Of a DNA stretch of 64,000 nucleotides, positions 5,360 to 51,821 are shown one piece after another; the first letter of the stretch is position 1, and each line of letters opens with the position of its first letter. The position numbers were made by a program, and so were the translations under genes. The stretch lies in the NCBI GenBank assembly GCA_020353515.1, contig CP070695.1, positions 1,634,200 to 1,698,199 on the forward strand. The letters are read 5' to 3'. Origin of the DNA: Candidatus Heimdallarchaeota archaeon (lineage in GTDB: Archaea; Asgardarchaeota; Heimdallarchaeia; Hodarchaeales; Hodarchaeaceae). The notes under the pieces are model-generated. The model saw nothing but the letters and a program-made list of their open reading frames with translations. It had not been told where the DNA came from and did no database searches.

Positions 5360-8095
5360 TTATTCCTGAGTTCCTGTTAATTTCTTTAGTTTAGTTAAAT
5401 TTGAATAATTGACTCGTTCACATTTCATATCTTTAACATCTTTAGCCAATTTTAATGCTGATTCAATAGTAGTCCGCGCTTTATCCCATCTTTCTAGGTC
5501 TAAATATAGGCTTCCTGCAACAGTTTTCCACTTGCATAGATTTTGTTTATTATTATGTTCCTCGGCGCTAGTGATTGCTTTCTCAAGATATTCTACTGCT
5601 TCTCTTAATTGGCCTTTTGTGCTTGTAGTTTCTTGAATTGTTGTTCCTATTTTTCCGTATAGTTCTCCTTCAGCTTCTTTATTCATGTCTTTAACATATT
5701 CAAGACAATTATTATACTCATTGAGAGCTTCTTTGAATTTTTCTTCTCTGAAATAGATATCTCCTAGTTTTACACGCCACTTTGCCTTACGATTTCGTGT
5801 TTCTGCCATTTTAAATGCTTTCTCAATGTTTGTTATTGCAAGATCCATACGTCCAACTTCTTGATAAGCCTCCACAATATCTCCATACAAAGATTCCTCG
5901 AGTTCCTTATCTCCGATTTTCGAGGCGAGATTAACTGCTTTCTTAAATGTATCAATTGATTTTTGCTCATCACTTTTAATATAACATTTTCCAAGGTTAA
6001 TTAATTGTTTAAGTTGGAATTGATTGTCTTTCTGACCTCGTGCGATTTTCAAGGCTGTCTCAAAGGATTCAGTAGCTTTAACTGGTTTATTTTTTGCAAA
6101 GTAAGCTTCACCTAGATTTGAATGAGCAACTCCTTTCAATTTTGTTAAAGAGAGGTTTTCAGCGATTTTTATAGCCTCACTACTATTTTTGATAGTTTTA
6201 TTATGTTCATTTAAAGATAGGTACTCTGTACCGAGATTAGTCAAGATTTCTGCCTTTGTTTCTTGATCTAATTCTGAAAGCTTACTTAAGGCTTGTTCAT
6301 TGTGATCTATTGCCAGGTTCATATTCCCCTGTTTCTCATAGGTATATGCTAGCTTGGTTAGCCATTGTGCTTCCTCTTTTCTGATACCTAAGGATGAAAT
6401 AATTTTTAATGCATCCTGATAGTAACTAATTGCCTTAGTTTGATCACCTTCCATGAAAGCAACATTCCCAAGAGACCCAGTCCACATACTCTCATACATT
6501 TTAAGATTATTTTCTCGTGCTTTATCTAAAGCTTCTTTATAATACTTTTTGGCCGAGTTAATATCTCCAGTGTCATAATATACATTACCAAGGTTACCTA
6601 ATTGTTTCTCTACTTCAATATTCCCCGTTATTTCATCTTTAATGGATTTAGCTCTCTCTAATGCTACTTTATAAGATTTTAATGCCTGTTCAGGTTTTCC
6701 TAAAGCAATTTCTGCCTTTGCTTGCTGTTCAAGACAATGTAATTGGCTTTCATTATCCCCTATTCTTTCAGATATCTTTTGCGCTTCATTAAAATGCGTG
6801 AGAGCTTTATCATATTTAGCTAAATCATATTGGGTTCTTCCAAGTGCTATTAGTACTTCAATATTGTCTCTTTCATCTTCTGTTTCCTTTACTACTTTGA
6901 GAGCTTTATTGAATTCTGAACTAGCATTTGTTGTATCCCCTGTTTCTTCATAAATCTTCCCTAAACCTAGATGGTACATTGCTTGTTTTTCTTGATGCTT
7001 TCTATTGTGAGCTAATTTAATTGCTTCTTTAAAATGTTCGATTGCTATTTCTTTTTGACTTATTTTCGCTTCAGCTTCAGCTAATTTTCCATACCATTCC
7101 ATGGCATGATCTTTGTCAATTTCTTTAGCAATAGTGACCGCTTTAGTTAAATGTTTGATAGCCTTTGTATACTGCTTCATCTCATAGTAAGCTTTCCCAA
7201 CCTTACCTAATTGAAGTTCAAAAGCCCTCTTATCATCAGATGACTTCAATACCCTCGCTGATTTTTCATAGTTATCTTTTGCTTTTTCTAAATCCCCACT
7301 AGTGAAGAAAATATCTGCTAATAACCCTAAATAACTTGCTTCTTCTTCTCTTTCTCTAGTTGTTTCAACAATCTTTATTGCTTTTTCAAGATTATCTATA
7401 GCTTTAGATAATTCATCTTCCACAAAATAAGTATTTCCTAAGAGAGCATAACTCATCCCTTCAAGATTCTTCGCTGAAACTTCATTCGCTAACACTCTTG
7501 CTTTTTCAAAAAATGAAATAGCTTTGTTGAAGTCTCCTTGTTTATGTGAACATTGCCCAAGGAAATTTAACCATTTTGCTTCATTTCGCTTATCATTCAA
7601 CTTCTTACTCAATGATATAGCCTTTTCGAACCAATTCACTGCTTCTGATATTTCATCACCTTCAAGGTGGTGAATTCCTAATTGACCATAACATTTTAAT
7701 TCTGCAGTTAACTCCCCACTTGCAGTAGCTAGCACTGTAGCTTGCTGATAGGATTCTCTAGAATCTTTTAACTTCCCTGCAAGCTTTTGTACTTTTCCCA
7801 ATTGCATTAAGATGTTTAATTCATTTTTCTTGTCTCCTAATGCATTATAGATTTTATTTGATTTCTTAAAATTCTTAATTGAATCAGATATGTTTTCTAA
7901 TTTTATGTTAACTTCAGCTAATTTTCCGAGTATTCTTGCTTCAGTAGGTTTATCATTAATCTCGTGCGCTAGCTCTACTGCTTCCTCGAAATATTTTGAG
8001 GCCCTTTCTGCATGAATTTCCTGAATGTCGAAAATAGCGTCCAATGCTTCATCTTTTTTTGATTTAATCTCGGTAACTGTGTGAGGATCACTCAT
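5360..8095 (-). CDS. Protein E: cytoplasmic all-TPR solenoid (~22 repeats of ~40 aa)
   Basis: Continuous LGxxY..G...A...Y..AL repeats; no signal peptide, TM or catalytic domain; ATGA overlap with upstream gene and GGAGTTGA SD. Confidence 0.92.
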   Translation of the reverse strand: MSDPHTVTEIKSKKDEALDAIFDIQEIHAERASKYFEEAVELAHEINDKPTEARILGKLAEVNIKLENISDSIKNFKKSNKIYNALGDKKNELNILMQLGKVQKLAGKLKDSRESYQQATVLATASGELTAELKCYGQLGIHHLEGDEISEAVNWFEKAISLSKKLNDKRNEAKWLNFLGQCSHKQGDFNKAISFFEKARVLANEVSAKNLEGMSYALLGNTYFVEDELSKAIDNLEKAIKIVETTREREEEASYLGLLADIFFTSGDLEKAKDNYEKSARVLKSSDDKRAFELQLGKVGKAYYEMKQYTKAIKHLTKAVTIAKEIDKDHAMEWYGKLAEAEAKISQKEIAIEHFKEAIKLAHNRKHQEKQAMYHLGLGKIYEETGDTTNASSEFNKALKVVKETEDERDNIEVLIALGRTQYDLAKYDKALTHFNEAQKISERIGDNESQLHCLEQQAKAEIALGKPEQALKSYKVALERAKSIKDEITGNIEVEKQLGNLGNVYYDTGDINSAKKYYKEALDKARENNLKMYESMWTGSLGNVAFMEGDQTKAISYYQDALKIISSLGIRKEEAQWLTKLAYTYEKQGNMNLAIDHNEQALSKLSELDQETKAEILTNLGTEYLSLNEHNKTIKNSSEAIKIAENLSLTKLKGVAHSNLGEAYFAKNKPVKATESFETALKIARGQKDNQFQLKQLINLGKCYIKSDEQKSIDTFKKAVNLASKIGDKELEESLYGDIVEAYQEVGRMDLAITNIEKAFKMAETRNRKAKWRVKLGDIYFREEKFKEALNEYNNCLEYVKDMNKEAEGELYGKIGTTIQETTSTKGQLREAVEYLEKAITSAEEHNNKQNLCKWKTVAGSLYLDLERWDKARTTIESALKLAKDVKDMKCERVNYSNLTKLKKLTGTQE

Positions 8096-10632: not shown

Positions 10633-10644
10633 GGTTTCACACTC

Positions 10645-20300: not shown

Positions 20301-23300
20301 GTCTATTCCTTCATGGTTGTAAATATTCCCTGAATATTTGTCATCACCGATAGGTATTAAGAACCTCGAGACGAATTGATAAATAATACCTCCTGTACCA
20401 TCATCTGTGACACGAGGTCTATAATTCTGACGATTTATTACCACAGTGTCATTTTCTGTTGTAAATCCTAAAGGTGTTTGTATGAGATAAGGATCATCGC
20501 TGCTCAGAACATAAGAATCTGACCATGTAGTTCCGAAATCACTGGAAAAGATTGAGACAATTTCTGTTTTTCCCCCAGTTATTCGTTCATACAACACTGC
20601 AATTCTGTTTGAGTAACCAACCATTGTCGCTGCACTCGGGAATCTAGCATTACCAACACCACTTGTTATCGGAAAAACGCCTTGATTATGGTAGGTGCTA
20701 TTTAATACTGTGAAATACAACTGTTGAGCTGCATAGAAGGTATTTTTCGAGTAACCTGCGAAAACAATCCCAAGACGATCGTTAATATCTATTAGATCTA
20801 CAGAATGGATGAAGTATTCCCCTAATCCAAGATTCGCTGAATTATCTGATAATACATTGTTGAAGATCACTTTTAATGTTAAATCTCCTTGTAGAATTGA
20901 AGTATTGGTTTGTGTATAGCAATAGAAAATGTAGTCATGTGTTCCATTGTTTATCTGTAATGTCCCTAAACCTCGTATTTGTGTATCAGGATCAGCTGGA
21001 GATGTTATTCTATCAATTAAGCGAATATCCGAGATTGGATTTCCATTTCGGTCAAAATTACGAGATAGGACACACTTATCGTAATCAGTTGCATTTTTGT
21101 ATGCAATCACCCATGAAACAAGAATATTTCCATTTTGCAGTTGAATGATCGTTGGTTCGTATTCTACTCCATCTACAAATCCATCACTATTATCATAATT
21201 CCTCACCTTAGGAGTACCATTAGTAGTAAGATCATTACTAACCCAATCCGCAGGTGCATCTGTATCTACGGGTATAACTGCCGTTTGAATAACGTTTGAT
21301 TGGTTTTTTCGTTCAAGAATTGAAATTATGGGGGTGAGTTGGGGTGTCGAATCGATTTCAACAGCGTTATAATACAATGAAAGGGTGTCACTCCCATCTG
21401 GAACAGTAAATTTCAAGCTAGTATTCTCATAATCGGGGGCAAATCCATATCGATCAGTAAAGACTGATGAATTTTGTGCAATAACGAAGTACTCTCGTGA
21501 AGGAATAACACCAGTACCAAATGATATGTCAAGTGTGCTATTAATCTGTAAATACCAGTTTGTTAAGTTAACATCGAAAATATTGGGATTATAGAGTTCC
21601 ACCCAATGATAGCTATAATTTGCTGGGTTATCATCAATGTCTTCGTAAAATACCTCGGTGATCAATAATCCTTGGGGAGGGGTGAAAAGCTGTTGGGATT
21701 TCGCAGATCCCACATCAGATGCATTAAGAGTAACAGAGTAATAAAGGCGTCCATCCCCATTTGTGGTATTCACTAGTTGCTCATTACCAGAAAATGGGTC
21801 ATGAAATTCTTCTTCAATTCCATAAACGACAAAGAAGTCACCATTATCAATTTGCACTACATCGTGGGCGTGTGGAGCTAGCCCTACAGGAGATTGGTAT
21901 GTGTCAAAAGTTGGTAACAATCCATGGGGATTTCCATAATTAGGATCAGAGGATATGATTTCAATACGGGTGAAACTCAAACTAGTTGATTCTTGTGCTT
22001 CCCAAATATCAACTCCATGACCATGTCCAATAATCAACTCTAAATTTCCATCAAAGTCACTATCACTCGTACCAAGAGTATTAACATGTGTACTAATTGA
22101 TGGAAAGTCGTATATATGATGAACATTGCCAAAATCTGATTGGAGAGCTAAGAGAAAACCTGTGTTTGTTTTAACAAACGTCTTCTCTTTCTCCCATTCA
22201 CAGACATATTGACGAACATGGTAATCCGCAATGTCATTCCAGACACCATTCAAATCCATCATAATTTCTGCATAATCCTCAACTCCTCCCGAATTACTAG
22301 GTTGTCCTCCACCCCAGTTGGTATATGGCCCATAAGGCTCACCGGTAATCCATACCCAGTTCCCTGGACTTGGTTCATATAAACCAATATGTGCTCTCCA
22401 TCCTGCCAAGCTTTGAACAAAATCATTCTCTTCCTGACTAGTTATGGTCACTAAATGGCCTCCTAAGCTTTCACAGGCAGCTTTAGCTTCACCCCAAGTC
22501 TTCGATTCCGTGAATAATTTGTATTCATTGCCCTTGAAGAAAACTCCACCATGAGTAATAAGAGTGTTACTTCGATTACTCCCACCTATCCATAATTCGG
22601 TTGTGTTATCTTGATTGATATCTGCGAAAAGCATTGTTTGAATATCAAGAGTAGGATGGAAGATCGGATTTCCTGGTTGATCAAAAAAACCTGTTCCACT
22701 AATAGATTGAAAACTTTCCAACCAACCGATTTCAGGATCCCATCGTAGTAAGAATAATTGTCTGCCAGCACCAAGTGCAATCATGCTTCCACGCCCATCG
22801 AAATCGGGGGTGATAGCTAAAGCTGAAAATTGAGTTATATCATAATCAATTACCATATTTCTATAATCAATCTCAAAAATTAGTTTGAATTCATCGTTAA
22901 AACCTGTTGCTTCAAAAATATATACTAGAAGGCCTGCTGTGATAATAAATTCTTCATTTCCATTGCCATTATAATCAAAACCTGCAGTGAGAAGATTACC
23001 ATGGTCAAAGATTGTTCTTCGAAATGTACCAGATACTCCAACAAGCTCCTGAAATGCATAGGGAGAGTAATTAGTAATTTCGGTGTGATTTAGGTCGTGA
23101 GTCTTGAAAGCACGTTTATATGTGTTCTCAATTAAATGTTCGAAGACATATACATTATTATCATAATCACACACAATTATTTCAGCATCTGTATCACCGT
23201 CCAGGTTACTACTTGTAGTTAATGTTATTGTCCAGTCTTTGATCTCCTTCAAGTTAGACCAGGATTTCACCATTGCATAACCGTAATTAATAGCATTTGG

Positions 23301-26750: not shown

Positions 26751-26983
26751 AGCGATTTTCAACTCATAGGGTTTAATTTTAGTAGTGTAGAATAAACAAT
26801 TCATTTTTAATTAAGTTAACAGAAGTAAATTTGTCTAATCTTAGCTATTCACAAAATAAGAATATCGTCCTCTTCGAATTTAATTAATGTTTGCTTATTT
26901 CGATTAGGAAAAGTAATATGATATCTATAATTTTCTCACTGGAAAAATCTCCTCGTAATTAATGTAGAGGTTTTGAATATATG

Positions 26984-27031
26984 AAGAAAAGAAAAAAAAT
27001 ATGTCCCAGGTAGTTATTCCCTGGGTTTTTT
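26984..27031 (-). terminator. Hairpin plus U-tract terminator ending operon A-B-C
   Basis: CCCAGG(27005-27010)-N9-CCTGGG(27020-27025), followed on the minus strand by a long T-run just after the C stop codon. Confidence 0.65.
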
Positions 27032-27034
27032 CGA

Positions 27035-29812
27035 TTATCCTTCTGGTTTTCTTCTGAATCGTTTTCTGAACCCTTTTCCTACTTTCTCAAGGGTACCTGT
27101 TTTCTTAGCCGCATATAATCCTGCTGCTGTACCACCACCAAGGACTAATCCGCCCGCAGCAAGCAGGATTAAACCTCCCAAGAGATCTGGTGCTTTTTTA
27201 GTAGGTGTGATCTTTGAAAACGGGGGAACACTCTCTTGGGGGATCAGCACATCTTCTGGCCCAATAGTAATGTTTAGGAAATAGCTTGTACTCAAACCTG
27301 TGTTCATTGATACACGGAAATAAATATCAGTCCCATTGTAAAGTTCTCTATATGAAGAGTTCATTGGAAAAGGACCAGCTTGCTCAGGATATCCTGCATC
27401 ATTGGTACTAAAGTCAATAATACTACCATTCAAGCTTATCAGCTCAAGATCTAAATTTTCTGTACCAAATTGAGATATTTCTACAATTATTGCTAATCCT
27501 GCCGGTACATTGACCACAAAGTAATCATCATCTTTGATCCGTATCCGTGGTGTCTCCGTGTGGCTAATGGTGTCTCTTGTAGGTCCTTCAACTACTGTTA
27601 TTCGAGTGGCATCACCGAATACATCATTATCTTCATGGGCATCATCGGTTTCTAAAATATCAATCGTTAAATTGTATGAATTGGGAGTTTCACCACCCCA
27701 GATTATACAAAATATGAAATATTTCCCGCTAACAGTGGCATTAAAGGAGATTGTTTCATTTAACACAGTGTCACTTTTCTCTACTTGTGGATAATCTGTA
27801 CCATTATAATCAGAATATAACTCCACATCAATATCATTGGTAAGAATTTCACCTTTTTCTTCAGGGTTTGGATATTCTTCTGGGAAATAATCCAAAGAAA
27901 TATCGATTGTATCGCCTTCATGAAGGTATAAATAATAATAATCGTAAAGGTCATCACGAAGGATAAGATCCGTGTAAATACCTTCAGCGATTGGTGCAGC
28001 AGTGGCAAAATCATTATTTGGCAACTCAAATGCATCATCAAAGAGATCTATGTTAATGGTTAGGTTATAATCTGCAAATCCATACCCAGGAGGTCCCACT
28101 CCAAGGATTAGAAGTAGATACATGTCTGCTTTAACGACATTATAAACAACAGTTTCAGAACTGGAGCCTGATGACGTTGAATCATCAAGAATTACACCAT
28201 CTTGGCTGGCTAAAAATAGGTTCAAATCAGCAAGAGACCCATCAAAGTCAATCCTCACCGTAAGCCAATCACCTGGAAGTAAATATATGCCAAACCAATC
28301 CATGTTTCCTTCCAGTGAGATAAGACCAGCATCAGGATCGTTTTCTGTGGGACTATAGACTTTAGACTGGGTTGGTAGGATATAAGCAGTTAAGGGGCCA
28401 TCATTTACTTCAGCCCAGTCATCCTTTTCTCGAATTGAAATTGTAAGGTTGTAGTAGAGAGGATAAGGATTATTAGAAGATACATGAATATAGAAAACAG
28501 AATCAGATAATGCTCGATATGGTCCAAATCGCAAACCGTTTAGAATCGGTTGTGGATCATCAAGAATTGAACTTGCTGATTGATTTTCATAAACAGTAAG
28601 GCTTAAATCTAATTTACTACCGTCAGGTAATTTTACTGGAACCCAATTGATATCCACAAGTAAACGCTTGTATTTTTCTACATTTACAGTGTACCAATCA
28701 TGATTGTTATTTGAAATAACCATTCCAGGCAATTTTCCAAAGTTTTTAATCTCTGTTGCAGTATTGTTTACGTGATTTGGCCCACTCTCAACTTCATACG
28801 CGTCTTCTAATGTAATATCTAAGGTATAATAATTCGCAATCCCTGCATTATTCCTTATTTCTAGATAATACCAATCTGTGTATTTCACTGTTGTAATAAA
28901 TGTTTCATAGTTCACTGTTGGGTTGCTTTCAAATTGAGAGTCGAAAAGCGTTTTATTTGAAAAATAGAGATGCATATCAGGTCCATTATTCTCATCTTGG
29001 CCAGAATCTAAGTAAGAGGTAACAGTAATATTTACCCACGAGCCTTGATACAGTAAAATCCAATAGGTATCATTATTTCCGTACAATGTGTCTGTATTCT
29101 GTGAAAAACGAAGTTTTTCATAATGGCCAGGGACAATTTCATCATCGCTTCCCCCTGGATAATTTGGAGGAGTAAGATCGTCAAAATGGTCATTTGGGGC
29201 AAAGTATTCCCATTTATCTTCATATACTACAGACATATTGTAAGTGGTTGAATACAGAATCACGTCTCCTATTGCTGGAGTCGAACAAGTTATATTAAAT
29301 ATAAGAGTCTCGGAGGTTCTTATTAAAATAGGACTAATAATTTCTTCATATCCAGAGTAATTGCTATATCCCAACAATGTTCCATTCTGAGCCCAAAGGT
29401 ATATATCTAAATCAGCATAGGGATATTCTAAATCAACAAAGTTGTTAGGCCCTGCAACACCAGTATCTTCCCAAATATTAGTTTGGTTAAATGTAATTGA
29501 AATAGAGAAATAAAACCCTGGTTTGACATCAAAGGAGTAATAATCTGGATTTGAAGAGCTGACATTTAGTAAATCGGGATTAGCGATTGATTCACCACCT
29601 AAAGGATACGCCCATGCCCAACGAGAATTATTAGTTAATGGTCCTAAACCATCGGGATCTTCCCATATGTTGTCAAGATGAGTCGGAGGGGACGCTGCAG
29701 CTGGTTGGGGGACAATAGGGATTTGCATTATCTGAATCATAATGACTAGAAATAGAATTTGTGTTACTAGTAATCCTATCCAAGAGTGTCTAAAGATTGT
29801 ATTTGGCTTCAT
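27035..29812 (-). CDS. Protein C: membrane-anchored protein of ~6 tandem PPC (pre-peptidase C-terminal)-like domains
   Basis: Repeats D.xE.ND...A...D(W/Y)Y...DLDLxL...E.I...Y.LxI; signal peptide; Gly-rich TM plus basic tail. Start moved to ATG 29812 (GGAGGT SD, ATGA overlap with B stop). Confidence 0.85.
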   Translation of the reverse strand: MKPNTIFRHSWIGLLVTQILFLVIMIQIMQIPIVPQPAAASPPTHLDNIWEDPDGLGPLTNNSRWAWAYPLGGESIANPDLLNVSSSNPDYYSFDVKPGFYFSISITFNQTNIWEDTGVAGPNNFVDLEYPYADLDIYLWAQNGTLLGYSNYSGYEEIISPILIRTSETLIFNITCSTPAIGDVILYSTTYNMSVVYEDKWEYFAPNDHFDDLTPPNYPGGSDDEIVPGHYEKLRFSQNTDTLYGNNDTYWILLYQGSWVNITVTSYLDSGQDENNGPDMHLYFSNKTLFDSQFESNPTVNYETFITTVKYTDWYYLEIRNNAGIANYYTLDITLEDAYEVESGPNHVNNTATEIKNFGKLPGMVISNNNHDWYTVNVEKYKRLLVDINWVPVKLPDGSKLDLSLTVYENQSASSILDDPQPILNGLRFGPYRALSDSVFYIHVSSNNPYPLYYNLTISIREKDDWAEVNDGPLTAYILPTQSKVYSPTENDPDAGLISLEGNMDWFGIYLLPGDWLTVRIDFDGSLADLNLFLASQDGVILDDSTSSGSSSETVVYNVVKADMYLLLILGVGPPGYGFADYNLTINIDLFDDAFELPNNDFATAAPIAEGIYTDLILRDDLYDYYYLYLHEGDTIDISLDYFPEEYPNPEEKGEILTNDIDVELYSDYNGTDYPQVEKSDTVLNETISFNATVSGKYFIFCIIWGGETPNSYNLTIDILETDDAHEDNDVFGDATRITVVEGPTRDTISHTETPRIRIKDDDYFVVNVPAGLAIIVEISQFGTENLDLELISLNGSIIDFSTNDAGYPEQAGPFPMNSSYRELYNGTDIYFRVSMNTGLSTSYFLNITIGPEDVLIPQESVPPFSKITPTKKAPDLLGGLILLAAGGLVLGGGTAAGLYAAKKTGTLEKVGKGFRKRFRRKPEG

Positions 29813-32800
29813 TGGTTGAACCTCCTTTTTTTCACAACATAAGTACATGGTAGTGTCACTAATGCTCCTACAGCCATGACTAGAGCGATATATGTCTTAA
29901 GAGTCATCCTAGTTTTATCCAAATATGTGGATACAATGATAGTAGGTGTTTCTTTGATTAAAGAGGAACTTTTACTGATAATAATTCTCCCTGTGATCTG
30001 TCCTCCTTGACCTCCTTGTTGCTCGACAAGATAATCTTCCTTTCCATAAAGAATATACACCCAATGATCAGCTGTACCCAATGCAACATCATTGATTCCA
30101 TCACCATTGAAGTCACCTACAATTGTACATAGGATGAGGTTTGTTGGTACAAATGAAGCCCATATGACCTGAGTTGGAGAGGTTGGTATCCCGCTTAATG
30201 CCATGATGTTATCGTAATTCAACGTTAGTACATCTAGGTATGTATCGTTATTAAGATCTGCCACTTGATATTCTTCTACATAGAATATGGAACGATCTTC
30301 AAAAGTCCAATTCAGATGGAACCCATCAGAATCTAGAGTAAAGCAATAGCTACCATTTGCAAACGACCGTACCACAATGTCATCATTACCATCGCCCGAA
30401 AAGTCACCGATCGCCATATGTGACAGTCTAAAGGGTATTTGATCAAGGAAGATTTTATCGAATTCTGTGGCTAGATTGCTTGTCCAATCATCATTTTGAT
30501 AAGCTACAATTGTTCCATTCCGAACAATAACTACGATTTCTGGACGTGAATGTCCTGTAAAATTACCTACTCTGAAATCTTGAACGGGAATTATAATACC
30601 ATTTCTTAGATTGCCATTTGTTCCATCTAATATCCAGATAGAATGCTCGTAAAGGGCAACTGCAAAGTCAAGAGTTCCATCATTAGTAAAATCAGCAACT
30701 TCAAATTGCGTAAATGGAGCGAATAATTGGTGATACTGCCATATAATCTTCCCATGACCAAGTGTTTGGTCTAAAGTTGTATTATAAAGGACAAATCGAC
30801 CAATATGGGCACTAAAGCGATAACCCATACTGATGGCCAACTCCTCATCACCATCATTATTTGTATCCACAAAAGCCATTTCATTGACAATCACGGGACC
30901 TAAGTATGCATCATTCGACCATATTGTTGGACGACCAATCTCCCCATCTATTATGCTTAATAGACCCGATTTCAACGCCACTGCTACATCAGGAATTGTA
31001 TCACCATTAATATCTTTAACCGCAATACGCATAATTGATGAGGTAAATCGCCATTTCCAGATAATTTCCCCTGTTGACCCCTCGATAGCCATTAAATATC
31101 TACTTCTATCCCCGAAGACAATGTCGTCAACTCCATCTGCATTGAAATCTCCAACAGCTAAATCGATCACATTACCTCGTGTCTTGAAAGAAGAACTATC
31201 CATTTGTACTGCAACAGAAATTGCCCTTGTTGGTTTATGTCGGACAAATGTCTTCATGTATATTCGCCCCTTACCGTCAAGTACTGCTGCTTCGCCAAAA
31301 TCGCCGAAATTACCTGCTGCTACAGATTTTATTGGCCTCTGCCAATTTGCGAATGGGGTTCCATAAGTTCCATCGATAACTGAGACTGCATCGGTATGTT
31401 TAGGACCAGTATATTCTGTGCAAAATACTAGATCATCAGCTTCACCATCTCGATCAAAATCACCTTGAGAAATGTCATTCGCATGTGTATCCCAAAGATG
31501 ATACTCCCAGAGAATGTCTGCAGGATTCAATCCAGACATGGCAATCAGTTTTGTCAAAGGCTGCTGATGGTAGGAGAAGTCATCCATAACGAAGAATGAC
31601 GAGATACCATTAAGTCCATCAATGCTAACTCTGTAAATTCTACCCAGAGAGTCTTCTAACTCTTTAAACTGTAAAAATCGGCCAGGTTCAATGAATACTT
31701 GGTCAAGTAGGTTCCCTTGATAGTCATATGCACTCCAGTTATAACTGTAACCTGTAGCTGTGGAAAAGTATGCGGAGACTCGTGCAGCACGGTCTTTAAT
31801 GATTATATAACTATCTATCTCGACAGCAGTTACTGCCATATCACCTGAATGAGGGATGTAAGTCGAACTGCTGCCATAATCCCCTACAGTCCATCCTTGC
31901 CAAGCGCCACCTGCATTTGAAAAGATAAGGCCTGTGTAATGGTTGTCTACTGTATTTCCGCTTGAAAGATCCTCAAAATCAATAGTATCAGTCGGAAGTC
32001 GGGTTTCTGAATTAAAATCAATCTGGAACATCACATCTTGAAATCCATCTTTGTTAAAGTCATATTTCAAAGTGTTGTCTCGATTCCCAATAGCACCGTC
32101 GAATGTATTGTTCCACAGTTCTGAATAGTTTCCTGTAGTTGTTTCATAAGCAAAAAGAATGCCTGATTCTACGATTAAGACCTCTTCAAAATCATCGCCA
32201 TTCACATCAATTAATGTTGCTGTTAAACCATACTTTGAACTATTACGTGTGAATTGGTGAACGGTACTCCAAGAAACCCCATTATAATTTAATAATATAA
32301 CTGATCCATTATCCTCATTAAATTTGCGTCCAGATACAACAAGGGTGTTATTCCCAGCAGATACGTGTTCTGCTAACCAGGAATTATCCGTAAGAGAGAA
32401 CAATTCCGTAGGCGCAATACCACTAGCCCCGTTTATCCAATAAACAGTTTCATTAAATGGTACAATAATATCTGAAACATTGTCATTGTTAAGATCAGAA
32501 AATGTCATCTCAGTGAAACCATCAATATCAATACCATCGAATTCTACTGACCAGATTTCACTTCCAAAAGCTCCATTGAGTGCATAGAGTGAAGTGGTAG
32601 TAGCATCGTTATCGTGAATAAGGAACACTAAATCTTTAATTGGGTCAGAATTGATAAATGCAGATTTGAGAGTTAAGATAATGGAGTTTTTTGAGAATCC
32701 TTCACTAGAGAGATTGAAGGCCCAGAACTCCCCACCTGTTGACCCATTTAATGCTCGAACTATAGGATACCAAGTGCTTCCTGTTGAATCCATTGTTGCG

Positions 32801-35800
32801 ACAAACAAATCGTCAACTCCATCAGATCCAAGATCAGTTGTATCCATTAATTTATCAGGTGAGGGGTTTACATTGTCAAGAATAGTATTATATTTTGCTT
32901 CCATCCATACTGGATCCCAATCAAAGAATAGGTAGTTGGTTCGGGGAACTTTTGTATTCCGGATCTCAAAGCTGTAAACGTTTCCCTCGACACAAGAAAC
33001 TATAATTTCATCAAATCCATTTCCATTTGAATCATATAGTTCAATATCTGTTGTTTCCGTTGCTAGGCCATCACTATGCCATGGTTGATAATAGAGTAAT
33101 GCTCTCTCTGGCCCACCTGTTCGGGAAACTTCTACGAGAAATGCTTGATTGCCAGAGGCAATAGCAATTTCTCTTCGTGCATCTGCATCTGAATCGCCAG
33201 TGCTAATTGCTCGTGCTTCCATAAAATCAAACAAAGTGAAATTGGATGTAGGATTCATCCCAAAGAAGATGTTATTATAGTACCCTCTATCAGGATATTT
33301 TGTACTCGAGTGGAAATCACTACCTCCAAAATTGGTTGCCATAGTCAACAACATACCACCCTCTTGATCATCATATCCTGAGCCAGTATTGGGATCATCC
33401 TCAGGATCATCTGTTCCGATAGCGTCGCTCCCATAAGCAACAATACTACCACCATATACTACAACAGACTCTTCCTCTGTCACGATGGGGTCATAGTTTA
33501 CAACAGGAGGAGGATTATAGGTCGTTTGGTAAACCAGGACACTTCCACCTCCGCCATCGTCAACGGTTGTTAATACTCCCACAGGAGTCCCTTCGTAACT
33601 AAGAGTACCTCCTCCAGTAGTCAAACCACCACCAACAGTCGTAACAAGGCCAGAATGAGCTGTAACGTCTCCAGAGCTTAAATATGTATATGTATCAGTA
33701 TCACTTGATGTGTATCCTGTACCCAGTGTGACCGTTGAAGATAAACGTTGAGCTGTAGTAAGTCGAACCAAAGAGAAGAAGTTATATTGTGCCATGAACG
33801 AATATGCAAATCCTCCAGTACAGTGAGCAGTGATCGCTGGTCCAACTGAGATCAGGGACTTAACAATCACATTATGGTCTTCTTTTAATACCAAGAGACT
33901 AAATCCATATTGTGGATATACAATGTATTCTGCAAATGGGGGCGTTGTTGTAACGGGTTCTGGATCACGCCATGTGTTTCCATCATCTTTTGAATATGTT
34001 ACCTGTAGATTTCCTGAAGGTTGATACCCCTCAGCTTCAAATATGATCATTAATGCATGGTCAGGTGTCACCGTTTGAGTGATAGATGGATGTAGTTCAT
34101 CTGTACCATCTATAGTTGCTCGAGAGTACGGAAAAGTGCCATCCCATATTGGTGTGGAGTTTGATTTTGCGATCCATAAATCATAATCTACTTTTCCTTC
34201 AACAAAACTCAATCCACTAAAGACAATAACAACATCGCCGCTTACAGAGCGAATGGTATCATGAGAGAGGGCCCTGTATCCTACTTTTCCAGGCCAAGTT
34301 ATGTTATTCTGTACCGCAGACTTTCCAATATTTGGAATCCTATCACCATAGAAAGGAGCATAATTGAAGCTTCCTTGCCAATAAATCCCACCATTTGTAT
34401 TATTTATATAGGAAATTGCTACTCCCAAGCCGTCAGTATTGTTATGGAAATCCCAGACACTCGGATTATAGAGAAGGTGGCCTAAGCTGAAAATAGCTGC
34501 TGCTCTAAACGCGTCAATGTCTTCAAAAATTGCATTTTCCCATTGAAGAGTTCCTGCGTTATCTTTAAGTTCAAGCAGCCATATTCCTTCGTAATCAGGT
34601 GCTATACCAAAGTCGAGGTGACCAGTGAACGCTAAGAAAACACGGCCATTGGGTGTTTGATACACTGAAGGGTGATATTCATAATAAGAATAAGTCATTG
34701 GGAATGTTCCCCAACCTGCAATGGGGGGTCGGTAACGAATTAGAATGTTATCAGTAGTTACTCTTCCATGTTGAATCCACGTATCACCATAATCAGGACT
34801 AGTAGCAAAGTACAGTGCTTGGCCTGCTTTGAAAATTTGGAGCCATTGAGACCGTCCAAAGGTGTCACTCATGTCATATTGAAGCTCAATGAAATCTGTG
34901 TTACGAAGAGCTAGCTGGACTTTTGCTTCAATGTCAAACATTTGCTTAAGTTTTATGGTTGGGAAATTCACATAACTAGTAAGTATTGACCTTTCTACGT
35001 AATTATTATCCCGTGAGGATCCTGGAGCATTTTCATAAATAACCACACCTTTGAATGTACCCACAATAATCTCTTTGTACTGGTCGTAGTCTTGGTTGTC
35101 AACCATTACATCAAAAACTGGATTTTCTTCCATTAAACGATTGGGAGCCCACCAAGTATACGCGTATGTGCCAATTTGATTCTCTAAAATAGCAACAAAA
35201 CCATTATAAGAACCCCACCAAGTTTTATTCACCCCACCGATAATAATCTCATTTAACTTATCATCGTCAGTGTCAGCAATAGTTATTGCTTCAATTGAAA
35301 GAGTTCTGACAGCTGGGGATGACATTGGGTTACCAGGGATGAAGTATCTTCCACGAACAGGCCAGGGGTTAACAAGGAAGTTCTCATCGAAACTATCATA
35401 ACCATTCGATTCGAATACAAATAGAAAGCTACCCGCTGCAAGAACAAATTCTCCATATCCGTTATAGTCAAGATCTCCTCCATAAGCTGCAGCTGTAAAT
35501 TGCGTTATTCCTAAATAATTGAACAACAATCCCCATGGGGATTGTCGAAGATCTGCTTGCCAAATTAATTTGTACTCATCATCAATACTGACGAAACCAT
35601 CATTATTTTGCTCCCAAACAAAGATTGAAAGACCTGCAGTGGCAACCATTTCAAGGAAGCCATCATTATCCATATCAAGACCAACAACTAATTCTTCGAT
35701 ATGATCCCAAATTGTTCGATAGAATGTCCCACTTACTCCTTCTAGTTCCTGCCAAGCATACGGAGAGGTCGTTGAGAGTTCTTTATGGGTAATATCCTGA

Positions 35801-38800
35801 GAACGATAGGCTCGTTTATATGTGTTATTGGTTAAATGCTCAAACACATACAGATTATTGTCAAAATCACCCACAATAACTTCTCCCCGACCGTCCTGAT
35901 CCATATCACCTGTTTTAATGGTCAGTGTCCAACGCTCTAATTCAGGTTTGGTGTTCCAAGTTTCAAATACATGATATCCATAATTTTCAAGCTTGTTTCC
36001 ATATGAATCTGTCCCTGATTTCAAGTTGATTTCTAAGCGGGAAATGATTGGATTTGTACCAATTACAAAGGCATTATGATTATTATATTCAGCCTCTAGA
36101 CGGATAAGCTCTTTTGTATAATTATTGAAAGTAGTCATATGAGTTACTTTTCCAGAACGCGGATCAATAGCAAAAGTAGGAGATGTCAAGTTGTTAAAAC
36201 GAAGACCACCCCAAGAGTTTGTAAATAACCACTTATTTTCTTTCCATTCAGGGGCCCATCGTTTTCCAACATTTTCAAAATATGTTGCTCCTGGACGAGT
36301 TGAGATCCCTAATGAGAGATCTAAATCACCATCTTGATCAAAATCAAATAGTTCAGGGGATGTATAGAGCTTATCTGTAGTTTGGAGATTCAACTCTTGG
36401 AAATATTCTTGATCTAATCTGAACATGGCATTTTCAATGTTTTCTAGTAAATAAATACGGCCATTGGTTAGTACAAGATCTAAATCACCATCACCATCGA
36501 TATCTCCAGTTGCTACTTCTGGAATAGTACGGGATTTCTCTAAAGCTCGTGACAGTAATCCTGTGATCTCTACCTCAGCTAGTTCTAATTTACCTTCATA
36601 CGCTCCAATTCCCCCGCCTGGATTAAACAGATAGAAATCTAAACCTGCTATTGCTTTTTGTTTGGTTTCATCAGCAGGATCATAAAGGAAATCTTCATGA
36701 GCCCAGCCTAAATACATGGTCTCGGGAAAGTTCGGCAAGAAAGGTTGGGGGATATGATCTGCGAAAGTTGGAATGATCGACATTCCAGTATAGAACGGAT
36801 TATAGTTCACTTGAGCGAACATAAGGAGGCTTAGGGCCTCAGAGCGTTCGTTAAGTAAGGACGGAAAGATATATAGTTTACCATTAGATGTTCCAACAAC
36901 AATATCATTTGAAGGGATATTGAGATCAATAATTCCCTCAAGTTCTGGATAATATGCGCTAAAGATGCCTTCAAAGAAGGTTTTAAAGAGAGACACATGA
37001 TCCATACCGGCGAATTCGCCATCTCCTGCTAGGAGGTGTGGTGGGTTATTAATTGGTGTCTCCAAAATTGAACTGCTTGATTCATTATATAACCAAGTTG
37101 GGATCTTTCCGGGATTTTTTACTTCAACAATATCCCAGATATTTGTACCTTGAGTATAAGTGTCATTTTTATAAGAATTCCAGAGTAAATCGTACCCTTT
37201 GGTAGCTGAATTGTATTCAAACATTACTATCTTACCATCAGAAGTACCTAGGACAATTTTCTTCCCCTCGGACTCACCAGTTGTATAAGCCTTATAATAA
37301 TCTAAATCTAAACTCCCTATCGTGATGGATGTTGCTGTATCCATAGGTCTATATAGAACTGGGGCATAACCACCCTTGATTTTAAAGATACCACCATTTG
37401 TTACATTTATTCGCATATACCGGAAATATGCCCAGTGTTCTTTAGAAAGAATAGGGTCAATATCAATCCATAAGTCATCATCATCAGGAGACGGGGATCC
37501 TAGGGCTAACGAAATATCCTTGTCAGGAATTAGTGCCCATAGGCCATCACCCCGTGATACTTCAAATGAAATTTTGCTTAATTGTGGTGCTGTACTCTCA
37601 TGGAATCGTAATAATACATCATACCCAAGACCTTCTCCTGGGATCGCCCACAAACCATCGCCCATAACTTCGCCATCATTTCCCCAGTCAACAATGGCAC
37701 TTGCTATTGAATCTCGGGCATTAAATGTTGTATAGTTTTCTGCTGGGTCATGATTTATATCATATATTCCCGCAATTGGGTTATCATCCACCACACCATC
37801 GCCATTCATATCAATATATACCCCATCCTCACCCCAGGGATCTAATTTTCTATGAATAGCCATAGAAGTATTTTTTGGCCATTGGGGTTCCCAAACATAT
37901 TTGCCAAAAGGCTCAGTGATAATTGTATTAGTCCCCTCATAATAAACATGTAAATTGGAAATATTTTCGGCTGTTAGGAATATACCAGTAGGGGTCTTAG
38001 TTCCATTGACAAACACATTGTAGAGTTGATTATCAATATATACTCCTGATGTAAGATTGTTATTTGAGGAAGACATCCAATCAATATAATGGTTTAAATA
38101 ATGGCCTAATCCTTCAAGTCCCCCAAGTTCCCAAGAGTCAAGGGGTTCCCATAATTGATGAGTCAAGTAACGGCCTGTTAATCCAACAGTTTTATCCCAA
38201 TTAACAACAAAGACATTTTGTCCCACAGAAATGTATACAATCTCATCTGCTTTATCATCATCGAGTTGGTCAACGATTATACGTAAAATTGGTTTCCATG
38301 AAGTATTTCCACTATCCCAATGATAACGATACGAATTATCCTGGGTAAGTGGCCACGGTTCCCCATTGATTGTTAGAATTGTACCATTGTTCTCATATAT
38401 ATATACACGGCCAAGTTCTGTACCAACTATGATTTCTGGGAGAGCATTGTAATTGGTGTCTCCCGTAGCGACAGAAAATATTTTCTCACCAACATCTATA
38501 GTTACTTTTTCTGTATATTCGATCCAGTGTTGTTTTGAGAAAGGATATCCTGAATGGTTTGTATACTCATATACATGGATCTTCTCATCCCAGGATCCTG
38601 CAATGATGTCAGGTTGGTAATCTTTATCGACATCAGCTATTTTGACTCCCCATACTTGTTGTAGTTTTGGACTGGTCCAAACATGGACAAATTGATTCTC
38701 CATATTATCAAATGGATCATAGATGTGTTCTTGTTCAAAGACATACACATGACCATCTGCACTTCCGCAGACGATTTCCATGAAGTCGTTATGATCTGTG

Positions 38801-39288
38801 TCTCCAAAATCTATTGAAAGCACATCTCCTTGAATGATTTGATCTCCTGAATCCCAAACTTTATCATATTCTCTAGTATACCCATTCCAGCGATAGAGAT
38901 GAATCTCGTTATCATATAAATACCCTCCACCTACCGCCAGAAATTCCTTTGTGGGATCAACTGCGATACATCTTACTGCTGCTTTCGTTAACCAAGGTTC
39001 CCACACATTCTGATAATCTAGCTCGTTGTTCATAAGAAATTTAGTTATATCATAGTCTTCAGGAAGATAGGGTTCGTCAACTCCTGGTTCGTCGTCACTA
39101 TAAAATGAATTTAGGGTCTCTGATGTTTCATCTGTAATCGAGCTCCTTAAAGGAGACATTGCTAAGATTGGGGAATTTGGGGTTTGAAGAATGCCTGATG
39201 CAGACATTGGGCCGATTAGAAATATACTTAGGAATAAAATTGCCATAAGTTTTGTAAGAGTTTTTGCCATCTTATGTCCACCTATCAT
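29809..39288 (-). CDS. Protein B: giant FG-GAP/VCBS multi-propeller surface protein with Asp-box repeats (paralog of B')
   Basis: Signal peptide; many GDhDGDGxxDhh motifs; SPDYGDTW and SKDDGNTW Asp-boxes; jelly-roll insert; C-terminal TM and KKRR; start 39288 or 39270. Confidence 0.88.
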   Translation of the reverse strand: MIGGHKMAKTLTKLMAILFLSIFLIGPMSASGILQTPNSPILAMSPLRSSITDETSETLNSFYSDDEPGVDEPYLPEDYDITKFLMNNELDYQNVWEPWLTKAAVRCIAVDPTKEFLAVGGGYLYDNEIHLYRWNGYTREYDKVWDSGDQIIQGDVLSIDFGDTDHNDFMEIVCGSADGHVYVFEQEHIYDPFDNMENQFVHVWTSPKLQQVWGVKIADVDKDYQPDIIAGSWDEKIHVYEYTNHSGYPFSKQHWIEYTEKVTIDVGEKIFSVATGDTNYNALPEIIVGTELGRVYIYENNGTILTINGEPWPLTQDNSYRYHWDSGNTSWKPILRIIVDQLDDDKADEIVYISVGQNVFVVNWDKTVGLTGRYLTHQLWEPLDSWELGGLEGLGHYLNHYIDWMSSSNNNLTSGVYIDNQLYNVFVNGTKTPTGIFLTAENISNLHVYYEGTNTIITEPFGKYVWEPQWPKNTSMAIHRKLDPWGEDGVYIDMNGDGVVDDNPIAGIYDINHDPAENYTTFNARDSIASAIVDWGNDGEVMGDGLWAIPGEGLGYDVLLRFHESTAPQLSKISFEVSRGDGLWALIPDKDISLALGSPSPDDDDLWIDIDPILSKEHWAYFRYMRINVTNGGIFKIKGGYAPVLYRPMDTATSITIGSLDLDYYKAYTTGESEGKKIVLGTSDGKIVMFEYNSATKGYDLLWNSYKNDTYTQGTNIWDIVEVKNPGKIPTWLYNESSSSILETPINNPPHLLAGDGEFAGMDHVSLFKTFFEGIFSAYYPELEGIIDLNIPSNDIVVGTSNGKLYIFPSLLNERSEALSLLMFAQVNYNPFYTGMSIIPTFADHIPQPFLPNFPETMYLGWAHEDFLYDPADETKQKAIAGLDFYLFNPGGGIGAYEGKLELAEVEITGLLSRALEKSRTIPEVATGDIDGDGDLDLVLTNGRIYLLENIENAMFRLDQEYFQELNLQTTDKLYTSPELFDFDQDGDLDLSLGISTRPGATYFENVGKRWAPEWKENKWLFTNSWGGLRFNNLTSPTFAIDPRSGKVTHMTTFNNYTKELIRLEAEYNNHNAFVIGTNPIISRLEINLKSGTDSYGNKLENYGYHVFETWNTKPELERWTLTIKTGDMDQDGRGEVIVGDFDNNLYVFEHLTNNTYKRAYRSQDITHKELSTTSPYAWQELEGVSGTFYRTIWDHIEELVVGLDMDNDGFLEMVATAGLSIFVWEQNNDGFVSIDDEYKLIWQADLRQSPWGLLFNYLGITQFTAAAYGGDLDYNGYGEFVLAAGSFLFVFESNGYDSFDENFLVNPWPVRGRYFIPGNPMSSPAVRTLSIEAITIADTDDDKLNEIIIGGVNKTWWGSYNGFVAILENQIGTYAYTWWAPNRLMEENPVFDVMVDNQDYDQYKEIIVGTFKGVVIYENAPGSSRDNNYVERSILTSYVNFPTIKLKQMFDIEAKVQLALRNTDFIELQYDMSDTFGRSQWLQIFKAGQALYFATSPDYGDTWIQHGRVTTDNILIRYRPPIAGWGTFPMTYSYYEYHPSVYQTPNGRVFLAFTGHLDFGIAPDYEGIWLLELKDNAGTLQWENAIFEDIDAFRAAAIFSLGHLLYNPSVWDFHNNTDGLGVAISYINNTNGGIYWQGSFNYAPFYGDRIPNIGKSAVQNNITWPGKVGYRALSHDTIRSVSGDVVIVFSGLSFVEGKVDYDLWIAKSNSTPIWDGTFPYSRATIDGTDELHPSITQTVTPDHALMIIFEAEGYQPSGNLQVTYSKDDGNTWRDPEPVTTTPPFAEYIVYPQYGFSLLVLKEDHNVIVKSLISVGPAITAHCTGGFAYSFMAQYNFFSLVRLTTAQRLSSTVTLGTGYTSSDTDTYTYLSSGDVTAHSGLVTTVGGGLTTGGGTLSYEGTPVGVLTTVDDGGGGSVLVYQTTYNPPPVVNYDPIVTEEESVVVYGGSIVAYGSDAIGTDDPEDDPNTGSGYDDQEGGMLLTMATNFGGSDFHSSTKYPDRGYYNNIFFGMNPTSNFTLFDFMEARAISTGDSDADARREIAIASGNQAFLVEVSRTGGPERALLYYQPWHSDGLATETTDIELYDSNGNGFDEIIVSCVEGNVYSFEIRNTKVPRTNYLFFDWDPVWMEAKYNTILDNVNPSPDKLMDTTDLGSDGVDDLFVATMDSTGSTWYPIVRALNGSTGGEFWAFNLSSEGFSKNSIILTLKSAFINSDPIKDLVFLIHDNDATTTSLYALNGAFGSEIWSVEFDGIDIDGFTEMTFSDLNNDNVSDIIVPFNETVYWINGASGIAPTELFSLTDNSWLAEHVSAGNNTLVVSGRKFNEDNGSVILLNYNGVSWSTVHQFTRNSSKYGLTATLIDVNGDDFEEVLIVESGILFAYETTTGNYSELWNNTFDGAIGNRDNTLKYDFNKDGFQDVMFQIDFNSETRLPTDTIDFEDLSSGNTVDNHYTGLIFSNAGGAWQGWTVGDYGSSSTYIPHSGDMAVTAVEIDSYIIIKDRAARVSAYFSTATGYSYNWSAYDYQGNLLDQVFIEPGRFLQFKELEDSLGRIYRVSIDGLNGISSFFVMDDFSYHQQPLTKLIAMSGLNPADILWEYHLWDTHANDISQGDFDRDGEADDLVFCTEYTGPKHTDAVSVIDGTYGTPFANWQRPIKSVAAGNFGDFGEAAVLDGKGRIYMKTFVRHKPTRAISVAVQMDSSSFKTRGNVIDLAVGDFNADGVDDIVFGDRSRYLMAIEGSTGEIIWKWRFTSSIMRIAVKDINGDTIPDVAVALKSGLLSIIDGEIGRPTIWSNDAYLGPVIVNEMAFVDTNNDGDEELAISMGYRFSAHIGRFVLYNTTLDQTLGHGKIIWQYHQLFAPFTQFEVADFTNDGTLDFAVALYEHSIWILDGTNGNLRNGIIIPVQDFRVGNFTGHSRPEIVVIVRNGTIVAYQNDDWTSNLATEFDKIFLDQIPFRLSHMAIGDFSGDGNDDIVVRSFANGSYCFTLDSDGFHLNWTFEDRSIFYVEEYQVADLNNDTYLDVLTLNYDNIMALSGIPTSPTQVIWASFVPTNLILCTIVGDFNGDGINDVALGTADHWVYILYGKEDYLVEQQGGQGGQITGRIIISKSSSLIKETPTIIVSTYLDKTRMTLKTYIALVMAVGALVTLPCTYVVKKRRFNQ

Positions 39289-39289
39289 G

Positions 39290-50762: not shown

Positions 50763-51821
50763 TTAATTGGACTTTTCAGCAGCTTGCTTTAGTACTTCTG
50801 CGGGATCAGTCTCGAGGTCAAGCGGGGGGCGTGGGAACCAGCATGATACATAATGCCCCTTGCTAATTTCTTCTAAAGGTGGTTCCTGGTCAACACATTT
50901 CTTTTGCGCATATTTACATCGAGAGGCGAAAAGACATCCTGGAGGTGGATTAATCGGACTACCAGGTTCTCCAGGAAGAATTTCACGCTTACGCATACGT
51001 GTTGGATCTGGAGTAGGAACAGCAGAGATTAGAGCAGCACTATATGGGTGCACTGCTCCATGTATGATTTGTTTGATGGAGCCCTTCTCCATGACCTTTC
51101 CAAGATACATAATGGCAAGCTTATCACCAATATAGCTTGCTACGGATAAATCGTGAGTGATATATAGATAAGCTATGTGAAATTTACGTCGAATATCTTG
51201 TAATAATGTCAAGATTTCAGAACGGATTGAGACATCAAGCATTGAAACTGGTTCGTCAGCCACAATGAATCTTGGATCAACAACGATAGCTCGAGCAATG
51301 GCTACGCGTTGACGTTGGCCACCACTAAGTTCATGAGGGTAACGAAAAGTGAACTCTTCAGCGGGAACAAGTTGAACAGCCTCAAAAGCTTTAACAACGC
51401 GATCCTCTTCTTCACTTGGGGAGTCCGCGAGATTATTTAAACGTATAGGTTCAGCAACAGTATCATAGAGGCTCAATCGGGGATTTAGTGACGAATAAGG
51501 ATCTTGAAAGATTGTTTGAATCGTTGCTCTAAGCCTACGGAGTTTCCTACGACTAATTTCGGAAAGATCCATTCCTTCGATGGTAACAATTCCATTAGTG
51601 GGTTTCAGTAAACCAATAAGTAATTTTCCTACGGTAGTTTTACCACAACCAGATTCTCCTGCAAGGCAGAACATTTCTTCCTTATATATGTTTAGATCTA
51701 TTCCATCAACAGCTTTAAGCCAAAGTTCTCCTCCTACCATTGAAGAAAAGAAACCAGTGCTTACTGGAAACCATTTCCTTAGTTCACGACATGAGACTAG
51801 TGGTTCACCATTTGTTGCCAT
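50763..51821 (-). CDS. dppF: Oligopeptide/dipeptide ABC transporter ATP-binding subunit (DppF/OppF)
   Basis: GESGCGKT Walker A, LSGGQRQR, IVADEP, ITHD, HPY and C-terminal Cys motif; ATG at 51821. Confidence 0.93.
   Translation of the reverse strand: MATNGEPLVSCRELRKWFPVSTGFFSSMVGGELWLKAVDGIDLNIYKEEMFCLAGESGCGKTTVGKLLIGLLKPTNGIVTIEGMDLSEISRRKLRRLRATIQTIFQDPYSSLNPRLSLYDTVAEPIRLNNLADSPSEEEDRVVKAFEAVQLVPAEEFTFRYPHELSGGQRQRVAIARAIVVDPRFIVADEPVSMLDVSIRSEILTLLQDIRRKFHIAYLYITHDLSVASYIGDKLAIMYLGKVMEKGSIKQIIHGAVHPYSAALISAVPTPDPTRMRKREILPGEPGSPINPPPGCLFASRCKYAQKKCVDQEPPLEEISKGHYVSCWFPRPPLDLETDPAEVLKQAAEKSN

Follow-up and report, generated by a model that had tools for sequence, protein, structure and literature searches.

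The window analysed here is a 64,000-nucleotide (64-kb) stretch of the genome of a Candidatus Heimdallarchaeota archaeon (GenBank assembly GCA_020353515.1, contig CP070695.1, positions 1,634,200 to 1,698,199). It contains two paralogous pairs of adjoining genes for giant surface proteins, A-B and B'-A', the first followed by an accessory gene, C, and the second by two more, D and E. The best reading overall, and one that is modestly favoured, is that A and B form an Asgard-specific paired surface receptor or adhesin with a role in Ca2+-dependent attachment. This reading is carried by an A-B adjacency that holds in every informative genome, by duplication of the two genes together, and by natural fusions of A to B. 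The host genome is a single contig of 4.94 Mb, and the closest homologs of A are annotated as Hodarchaeales, Hodarchaeota or Promethearchaeota. Thus, the assignment of the host to an Asgard archaeon, made in a preliminary description from the DNA letters, is correct, and the order is Hodarchaeales.

A pattern scan of one genome per species, covering 185,579 prokaryote species, found 51 A loci, all of them in Asgard genomes or in metagenome-assembled genomes (MAGs) labelled 'uncultured archaeon'. The hosts include Hod-, Heimdall-, Kari-, Thor- and Hermodarchaeota, Lokiarchaeum ossiferum, Harpocratesius and Promethearchaeum. Where the contig continues beyond the 3' end of A, as in 39 loci from three Asgard classes, tblastn finds B directly downstream on the same strand every time. 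In each of the 12 remaining loci, which have no B, the contig ends inside or at the end of A. Among 41 relatives examined, B is present in 20 of the 21 A-positive genomes, the exception having only A fragments at contig ends. The pair of L. ossiferum consists of an A of 2076 amino acids (aa; NEF87_004127) and a neighbouring B of 2641 aa, separated by a 3-bp gap and located among LSM and L37e genes; in a Thorarchaeote, the pair (2195 and 2630 aa) has a 1-bp gap, with TGT and MTHFR/Mtr genes as neighbours. The preliminary description had proposed a tied, translationally coupled pair and had allowed that A and B homologs might usually be unlinked; all 39 informative loci are linked, and the co-duplication and fusions described below likewise bear out the pairing.

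In several genomes of one Thor-type genus, A and B are fused. Single open reading frames (ORFs) of 4881, 4897 and 4836 aa were verified in three Thorarchaeota MAGs from different studies; fusion loci of this size are L081 (G228:C144), L082 (G114:C28) and L083 (G267:C38). The fusion ORFs keep the transmembrane (TM) segment of A, a linker of ~65 residues, the signal/TM segment of B, and the final TM segment of B, an arrangement consistent with an out-in-out topology. In a tree of A, an unfused protein is the sister of one fusion, so fusion or fission may have occurred more than once. Genes that are always adjacent, translationally coupled and repeatedly fused are a classical sign that their proteins act together. 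As 'Rosetta-stone' proteins, the fusions indicate that A and B work together.

The two pairs within the window are diverged copies of one another. A and A' are 34% identical across 2190 aligned columns, that is, over their full length, and B and B' share 30-36% identity in long blocks, so that both had rightly been described as paralogs (full-length and collinear in the case of A and A'). A maximum-likelihood tree of the A heads places A' in a separate clade with a Shimodaira-Hasegawa-like approximate likelihood-ratio (SH-aLRT) support of 100. Members of this clade come from the window's family (f1) and from a second Heimdallarchaeia family (f5), each beside a B'-type gene. Outside this clade, the A sequences fall into two groups, Thor/Loki and Heimdall, as vertical descent would predict. 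In both f1 and f5, the A'-type gene is downstream of the B'-type gene and the A-type gene is upstream of the B-type gene. By these results, the A-B duplication is older than the split of the two Heimdallarchaeia families.

The partners are cognate: the fixed sets A-B(-C) and B'-A'-D(-E) are inherited as units across families. Tree and synteny thus contradict the proposal that partners are interchangeable. The related proposal, that C or D serves as a variable third subunit, holds in the sense that each is specific to one paralog pair, C to A-B and D to B'-A', and fails in the sense of one substituting for the other. A homolog of C follows A-B in another family (G023:C119), and a homolog of D follows B'-A' in seven other genomes from two families. 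E follows D in just three genomes, all of the window's genus, and does not follow D in G008, G026 or G030; judged from this distribution, E is a genus-level accessory. A-B stands alone in G024, G028 and G038 (family f3), in L. ossiferum and in the Thorarchaeote.

With the beta domain of A (described below) as the query, the module was detected in 78 of 301 Asgard genomes that are at least 80% complete. By family, it is present in 11 of 18 genomes of f1, 8 of 9 of f5, 9 of 27 of f3, 40 of 71 of the Thor-type family f11, and 0 of 92 of f14. On this distribution the A-B module is widespread but dispensable.

In the window, the seven genes are consecutive ORFs on the minus strand, as are all features within them given below. 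Their total of 13,444 aa agrees with the ~13,400 aa first reported for seven co-oriented genes. From 5' to 3', they are A (39290..45907, 2205 aa), B (29809..39288, 3159 aa) and C (27035..29848, 937 aa; 925 aa when counted from the ATG at 29812), followed by B' (17316..26804, 3162 aa), A' (10645..17319, 2224 aa), D (8092..10632, 846 aa) and E (5360..8095, 911 aa). The coordinates confirm each junction previously named: a 1-bp gap between A and B, an ATGA overlap between B'/A' and between D/E, and a 12-bp gap between A' and D. The B stop and C also share an ATGA overlap if C starts at its internal second ATG, 29812. Such coupled junctions, whether 1-bp gaps or ATGA overlaps, are found in other families as well. 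The two gene sets are divided by a terminator-like element (26988..27032, minus strand) directly 3' of the C stop. Here the 230-bp C-B' spacer opens with the hairpin CCCAGG-N9-CCTGGG, which is followed by T8CT4; the spacer folds with -13.4 kcal/mol (z = -3.2 versus shuffles). A terminator at this site had been claimed, and the hairpin and T-run are indeed there, although a consensus terminator scan did not flag the hairpin.

In hydropathy analysis, a hydrophobic segment at the N-terminus and, at the C-terminus, a TM segment with a basic tail after it are seen in each of A, B, C, A' and D. B' shares this C-terminal arrangement, with a weaker N-terminal h-region, and E has neither a TM nor an N-terminal hydrophobic segment by this method. 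Thus, of the six proteins said to be exported and C-terminally anchored, five conform fully and B' conforms at its C-terminus, and E is cytoplasmic as claimed. The accompanying claim of Asp-based Ca2+-binding motifs holds for A, A', B and B', with 30, 31, 12 and 11 DxDxD motifs, respectively, and not for C, in which the motif count is 0. Pfam searches detected no catalytic domain in any of the seven proteins.

Protein A consists of a signal/anchor, an alpha/beta domain, a helical region of ~600 aa, an amphipathic beta domain, ~900 aa of TSP3-type repeats, an Ig-like segment, a C-terminal TM segment, and a short basic tail. The only Pfam match in either A or A' is TSP3_bac (E = 3.6e-8 in A and 2.8e-24 in A'). 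In A, the corresponding Asp-rich, TSP3-like Ca2+-binding repeats occupy residues ~1205-2090 (39638..42295) and contain 30 DxDxD and 12 DxDxDG motifs. For the N-terminal 1,200 residues, neither Pfam nor the Protein Data Bank (PDB) offers a sequence relative. When this head was modelled by AlphaFold2 from a 30-sequence alignment, the predicted local distance difference test score (pLDDT) was 70 and the predicted template-modelling score (pTM) was 0.40. The first domain of the head (residues ~60-250, 45158..45730, pLDDT ~85) is a predicted three-layer alpha/beta domain with a generic Rossmann-like fold, for which SAVED-CHAT (Z 10.6) ties with periplasmic-binding/LacI lobes and legumain. No consistent Pfam match to this domain was obtained across 29 homologs, and a profile-versus-PDB search was likewise empty. 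The next region (residues ~310-920, 43148..44980) is all-helical, rich in hydrophobic residues (38% I+L+F+V+M), and without a known family. Its hydrophobic moments are unremarkable, with z > 2 in 10 of 23 helices. A profile-versus-PDB search of the head matched designed helical repeats alone, a composition effect.

The amphipathic beta domain (residues ~925-1195, 42323..43135) comprises ten strands of 8-19 residues and is the best-conserved part of A, with a mean column identity of 51% and motifs that include LTFFQD and YIGLD. Modelled alone, it gave a pLDDT of 70 and a pTM of 0.54. In three fold searches, this model matched only outer-membrane barrels, bacterial or mitochondrial. All 50 rows shown by VIA-align (48,161 chains) are membrane beta-barrels, nearly all of them bacterial outer-membrane proteins (OMPs), with Z values of 8.4-12.3; among them are CymA (Z 12.3), autotransporter beta-domains, BamA, and TonB-dependent receptors. 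Foldseek against the PDB returned FepA (E = 6.4e-4) as well as BrkA and EspP (probability about 1.0), and an ESM Atlas structure search returned TonB-dependent and other OMP barrels with TM-scores of 0.55-0.58 over ~215 residues. In addition, all ten strands are dyad-amphipathic, with alignment-averaged Kyte-Doolittle values of +0.9 to +3.8 on the hydrophobic face and -0.5 to -2.3 on the small/polar face. Sequence pattern and predicted fold therefore support the earlier idea of A engaging a membrane or lipid. By sequence similarity, neither Pfam nor a profile search of 1.84 billion proteins links the domain to bacterial OMPs, because the 53 clusters recovered by the profile are A-type proteins, mostly of A-type length and domain position, together with a shorter paralog family. 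An ESM Atlas feature search gave Bacteroidota clusters and DUF6603 at 0.83, with low recognition, and is a lead only. Together, these results suggest that the A head is a family of its own without known relatives and with an unexpected, outer-membrane-like predicted fold.

The shorter proteins found in the profile search belong to a second, distant family of ~1,500-1,800 aa that shares the beta domain of A near residues 400-680. They occur mostly in Thor-type genomes (for example G137:C4:311627-312343, G134:C18 and G260:C5; P0093, P0094, P0084 and P0097) and are absent from the window's genome.

Protein B consists of a signal peptide, several FG-GAP beta-propellers, a BNR/Asp-box region, a C-terminal TM segment, and the tail KKRRFNQ. 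FG-GAP and FG-GAP_3 are matched by Pfam in both B and B'. The integrin-alpha-like N-terminal propeller (residues 60-450, 37939..39111) carries DxDxDxxxD loops, and over the first 390 residues of B the Hodarchaeales proteins are ~50% identical to their Thor/Loki orthologs. In an alignment of 31 sequences, 57 columns are invariant, including three DxDxDxxxD loops of the type typical of integrin-alpha. The remainder of B is far more variable and tolerates inserts such as lectins and the lamin-tail domain (LTD). B' indeed differs from B by two C-type lectin domains and an LTD. The first lectin lies near residues 480-605, and the second at residues 1434-1536 (22197..22505; Lectin_C E = 1.9e-35, two stretches). 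The protein ends in RKRRQHVKKRRRSQS.

A separate ORF of 1,328 aa adjoins the B'-A'-D set in G008 (L085, G008:C49, 1638-5624, plus strand). It contains a C-type-lectin segment that is 44% identical to B' residues 1416-1538, which suggests that lectin cassettes move between surface proteins.

The preliminary description had also considered that the locus might match a system already characterised; none matches. Among the closest likenesses is the integrin alpha/beta heterodimer of eukaryotes, which consists, like the A-B pair, of two type-I membrane proteins that are co-expressed, as is predicted for A and B from their coupled genes. B, like integrin alpha, starts with an FG-GAP propeller whose DxDxDxxxD Ca2+ loops are invariant in the 31-sequence alignment, and A, like integrin beta, starts with an alpha/beta domain. 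To judge from the motifs, function that depends on divalent cations may be shared as well. However, the GFFKR-type motif of integrin alpha is present neither in B (KKRRFNQ) nor in B' (RKRRQHVKKRRRSQS). Pfam finds none of the vWA/MIDAS, PSI or EGF domains of integrin beta in A, and the hybrid domain is also absent. The best fold rows for the A alpha/beta domain are CHAT, periplasmic-binding lobes and legumain rather than vWA, a comparison that would not decide the matter by itself. A and B are also 2-3 times larger than integrins, several propellers occur in B, A includes a TSP3 stalk and a barrel-like domain, and the cytoplasmic tails of both are only 7-15 residues.

A and A' share their ~900 aa of Asp-rich TSP3-type repeats (PF18884) with thrombospondin and bacterial TSP3_bac proteins. 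Unlike thrombospondin, they have no C-terminal lectin-like domain or EGF repeats by Pfam and no coiled coil, and A is membrane-anchored and always paired with B. The likeness of A residues 925-1195 to outer-membrane beta-barrels would extend to both predicted fold, in a model of moderate confidence, and dyad-amphipathic strands. In contrast to such barrels, the domain belongs to an archaeon with cultured relatives in which a single membrane is seen, it lies midway along a protein that is exported and anchored at its C-terminus, and the hydrophobic faces of its strands reach 9 residues, longer than is typical of an outer-membrane belt. Large lipid transfer proteins (lipovitellin, MTP, ApoB) resemble the A head overall in combining a helical region with amphipathic beta-sheets. 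They lead the Foldseek list for the whole 1,200-residue head, in which nothing reaches E <= 1e-3; the rows (1lsh, 6i7s, 9bd1; E 1.6e-3 to 1e-2, TM-score ~0.1, root-mean-square deviation above 30 A) are a lead only.

Aloposons, described by Wu et al. 2022 in Heimdallarchaeum (Otus/Ephialtes), are mobile elements with tandem genes for proteins of 3,000-6,000 aa, a tRNA integration site downstream of the giant genes, and four upstream genes that include one for a MinD/ParA-like ATPase; tandem giant genes in Thorarchaeota are also mentioned (PMC8813620). The feature shared with the A-B locus is the presence of tandem giant genes in an Asgard genome. B and B' are ~3,160 aa and A and A' ~2,200 aa, compared with the 3,000-6,000 aa of aloposons, and the orthologs in G028 and G038 are ~2,080 and ~2,670 aa. 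A-B differs from aloposons in that its chromosomal context is stable and its inheritance apparently vertical. The complete genomes G028 and G038 also gave no sign of homology.

From these genes and predictions we infer a physical A-B complex, its dependence on Ca2+, a division of binding between the subunits, and a role in adhesion. For the complex, a prediction from alignments of A 55-330, A 915-1205 and B 60-450 gave a score of 0.00, which speaks neither for nor against binding. A and B would together make up a surface module that is Asgard-specific and vertically inherited, each subunit being a giant type-I membrane protein with a C-terminal helix anchor and almost no cytoplasmic tail. B, with its array of integrin-alpha-like FG-GAP propellers (and lectins in B'), would most likely be the subunit that recognises. 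A would present a long Ca2+-binding stalk of TSP3 repeats bearing a head made of the alpha/beta domain, the hydrophobic helical region and the amphipathic beta-sheet or barrel, and this head would most likely touch something hydrophobic, for instance a membrane or lipid. In the Heimdallarchaeia, the pair underwent an ancient duplication, and each copy gained its own membrane-anchored third subunit, C for A-B and D for B'-A'; in the window's genus, the gene for the cytoplasmic tetratricopeptide-repeat (TPR) protein E lies after that for D. Most likely, the module would serve to attach the cell or its protrusions, in a Ca2+-dependent manner, to substrates or to partner cells. The partner adhesion, prey capture and D-E link put forward in the preliminary description are putative.

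The accessory proteins have the following domains. C contains a signal, PPC-type beta-sandwich repeats and a C-terminal TM segment. D contains a signal, a right-handed beta-helix (Beta_helix/NosD), an Ig-like region, a TM segment at residues 740-758 and a short cytoplasmic TPR tail. E consists of TPR throughout by Pfam.

Several points weigh against a receptor or adhesin formed by A and B. The pair is known here only from its genes and from predictions. Adjacency and fusion speak for functional linkage, and not necessarily for a stable heterodimer. With cytoplasmic tails of just 7-15 residues, A and B are poorly suited to signal by themselves in the manner of integrins. Closure of the barrel is uncertain given the moderate head models (pLDDT ~70, pTM 0.40 and 0.54), and dyad-amphipathic strands also occur in soluble sheets, for example those lining soluble lipid cavities. 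Finally, the module is patchy (78 of 301 genomes, and 0 of 92 in f14), and therefore it is not a general Asgard coat.

This patchiness is also compatible with another explanation, in which A and B are co-regulated but physically independent adhesins or coat components, linked only through shared regulation and export. Giant multi-domain adhesins commonly work alone, and each protein has its own signal and anchor. Such independence is nonetheless unlikely, given the 39 of 39 adjacency across three Asgard classes, the co-duplication in which order was swapped but coupling retained, and the natural gene fusions, which are unusual for genes that are merely co-regulated.

Less probable still is that the locus encodes a capture or scavenging apparatus for polymers, whose domains bind glycans or proteins for uptake rather than cells. 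PPC (in C), NosD/beta-helix (in D), BNR/Asp-box (in B) and lectins (in B') are also present in secreted hydrolases, Opp/Dpp peptide transporter genes lie 5 kb upstream, and Hodarchaeales are peptidotrophic (10.1101/2025.02.26.640444). However, no catalytic domain accompanies these modules in the seven proteins, and the transporter genes are not kept beside A-B in other lineages.

A bolder reading gives the beta domain a more specific task. As a pre-formed outer-membrane-type barrel or amphipathic lipid-binding sheet of an archaeon that itself has no outer membrane, shielded by amphipathic helices, guided by B, and carried at the tip of a Ca2+-stiffened stalk, it might be planted into the envelope of a syntrophic partner or take up its lipid. 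This is a speculative and rather improbable proposal. If true, the lineage from which eukaryotes arose would possess an archaeal machine dedicated to contact between membranes or to the exchange of lipids.

A pore-former or contact-dependent weapon, with B targeting a cell and the beta domain of A inserting to damage it or extract material, is very unlikely. The predicted outer-membrane-barrel-like fold with its strongly hydrophobic strand faces would suit such a function, and the full head weakly matches Tc-toxin A subunits in Foldseek. However, the Tc rows, like those of the lipid transfer proteins, are not significant (E >= 1.6e-3, TM-score ~0.1), the locus has no toxin or immunity gene, and both A and B remain anchored to the producer.

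The idea that the tandem giant genes are aloposon-type cargo, which the giant genes already reported from Asgard genomes including Thorarchaeota (PMC8813620) might suggest, was rejected as largely refuted and of very little probability: ARAGORN finds no tRNA in the 64-kb window, a divergent FtsX/MacB permease and then Opp/Dpp genes replace the MinD/ParA set upstream, A-B lies among different housekeeping genes in each lineage with flanks that are stable and syntenic between G028 and G038, no other giant gene resembling A or B was seen in those two complete genomes, and the A tree broadly tracks taxonomy.

A search of the literature found no description of the A-B pair, although B-type proteins may already be catalogued, as an asCOG family, among the integrin-repeat eukaryotic signature proteins (ESPs) of Liu et al. 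2021; 'Integrin repeat-containing ESPs' are attributed to that study in PMC9258230. The 2022 supplements for L. ossiferum do not mention NEF87_004126 to NEF87_004128. In cryo-electron tomography, cultured Asgard cells have a single membrane, no S-layer, and 'complex surface proteins' that were not identified (PMC9834061); the lack of an S-layer, an amorphous coat and surface proteins without an assigned identity are common to such studies (PMC9834061; 10.1101/2025.11.06.686947). Adhered cells of L. ossiferum and of a Hodarchaeales isolate crawl, with adhesion molecules yet to be named (PMC13716822), and Hodarchaeales isolates attach to methanogens via protrusions that bear filaments, also not identified (10.1101/2025.02.26.640444). 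Surface and attachment molecules of Asgard archaea are central to models of how an archaeal host met the mitochondrial ancestor. A-B provides a concrete, lineage-specific candidate for the machinery of cell contact in the archaea most closely related to eukaryotes, and one that spans cultured L. ossiferum (A = NEF87_004127, with B adjoining) and the Hodarchaeales. The predicted outer-membrane-like barrel in A would be a fold class unexpected in a single-membrane archaeon.

The gene divergent from A (46505-50275, plus strand) encodes a 1,256-aa FtsX/MacB-type permease with a large periplasmic-core-like domain, and it is not conserved beside A-B in the other lineages examined. Beyond it, at 50763-60462, lie Opp/Dpp-type peptide ABC transporter genes that include an unusually long permease (737 aa); these genes fit the peptidotrophy of cultured Hodarchaeales. 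At the other end of the locus, convergent with E, is a gene (1486-5328, plus strand) for a 1,280-aa surface protein with DUF7948, six SBBP propeller repeats and Big_13 Ig domains. An ORF of similar size occupies the same position in G011 (L084, 3533-7348).

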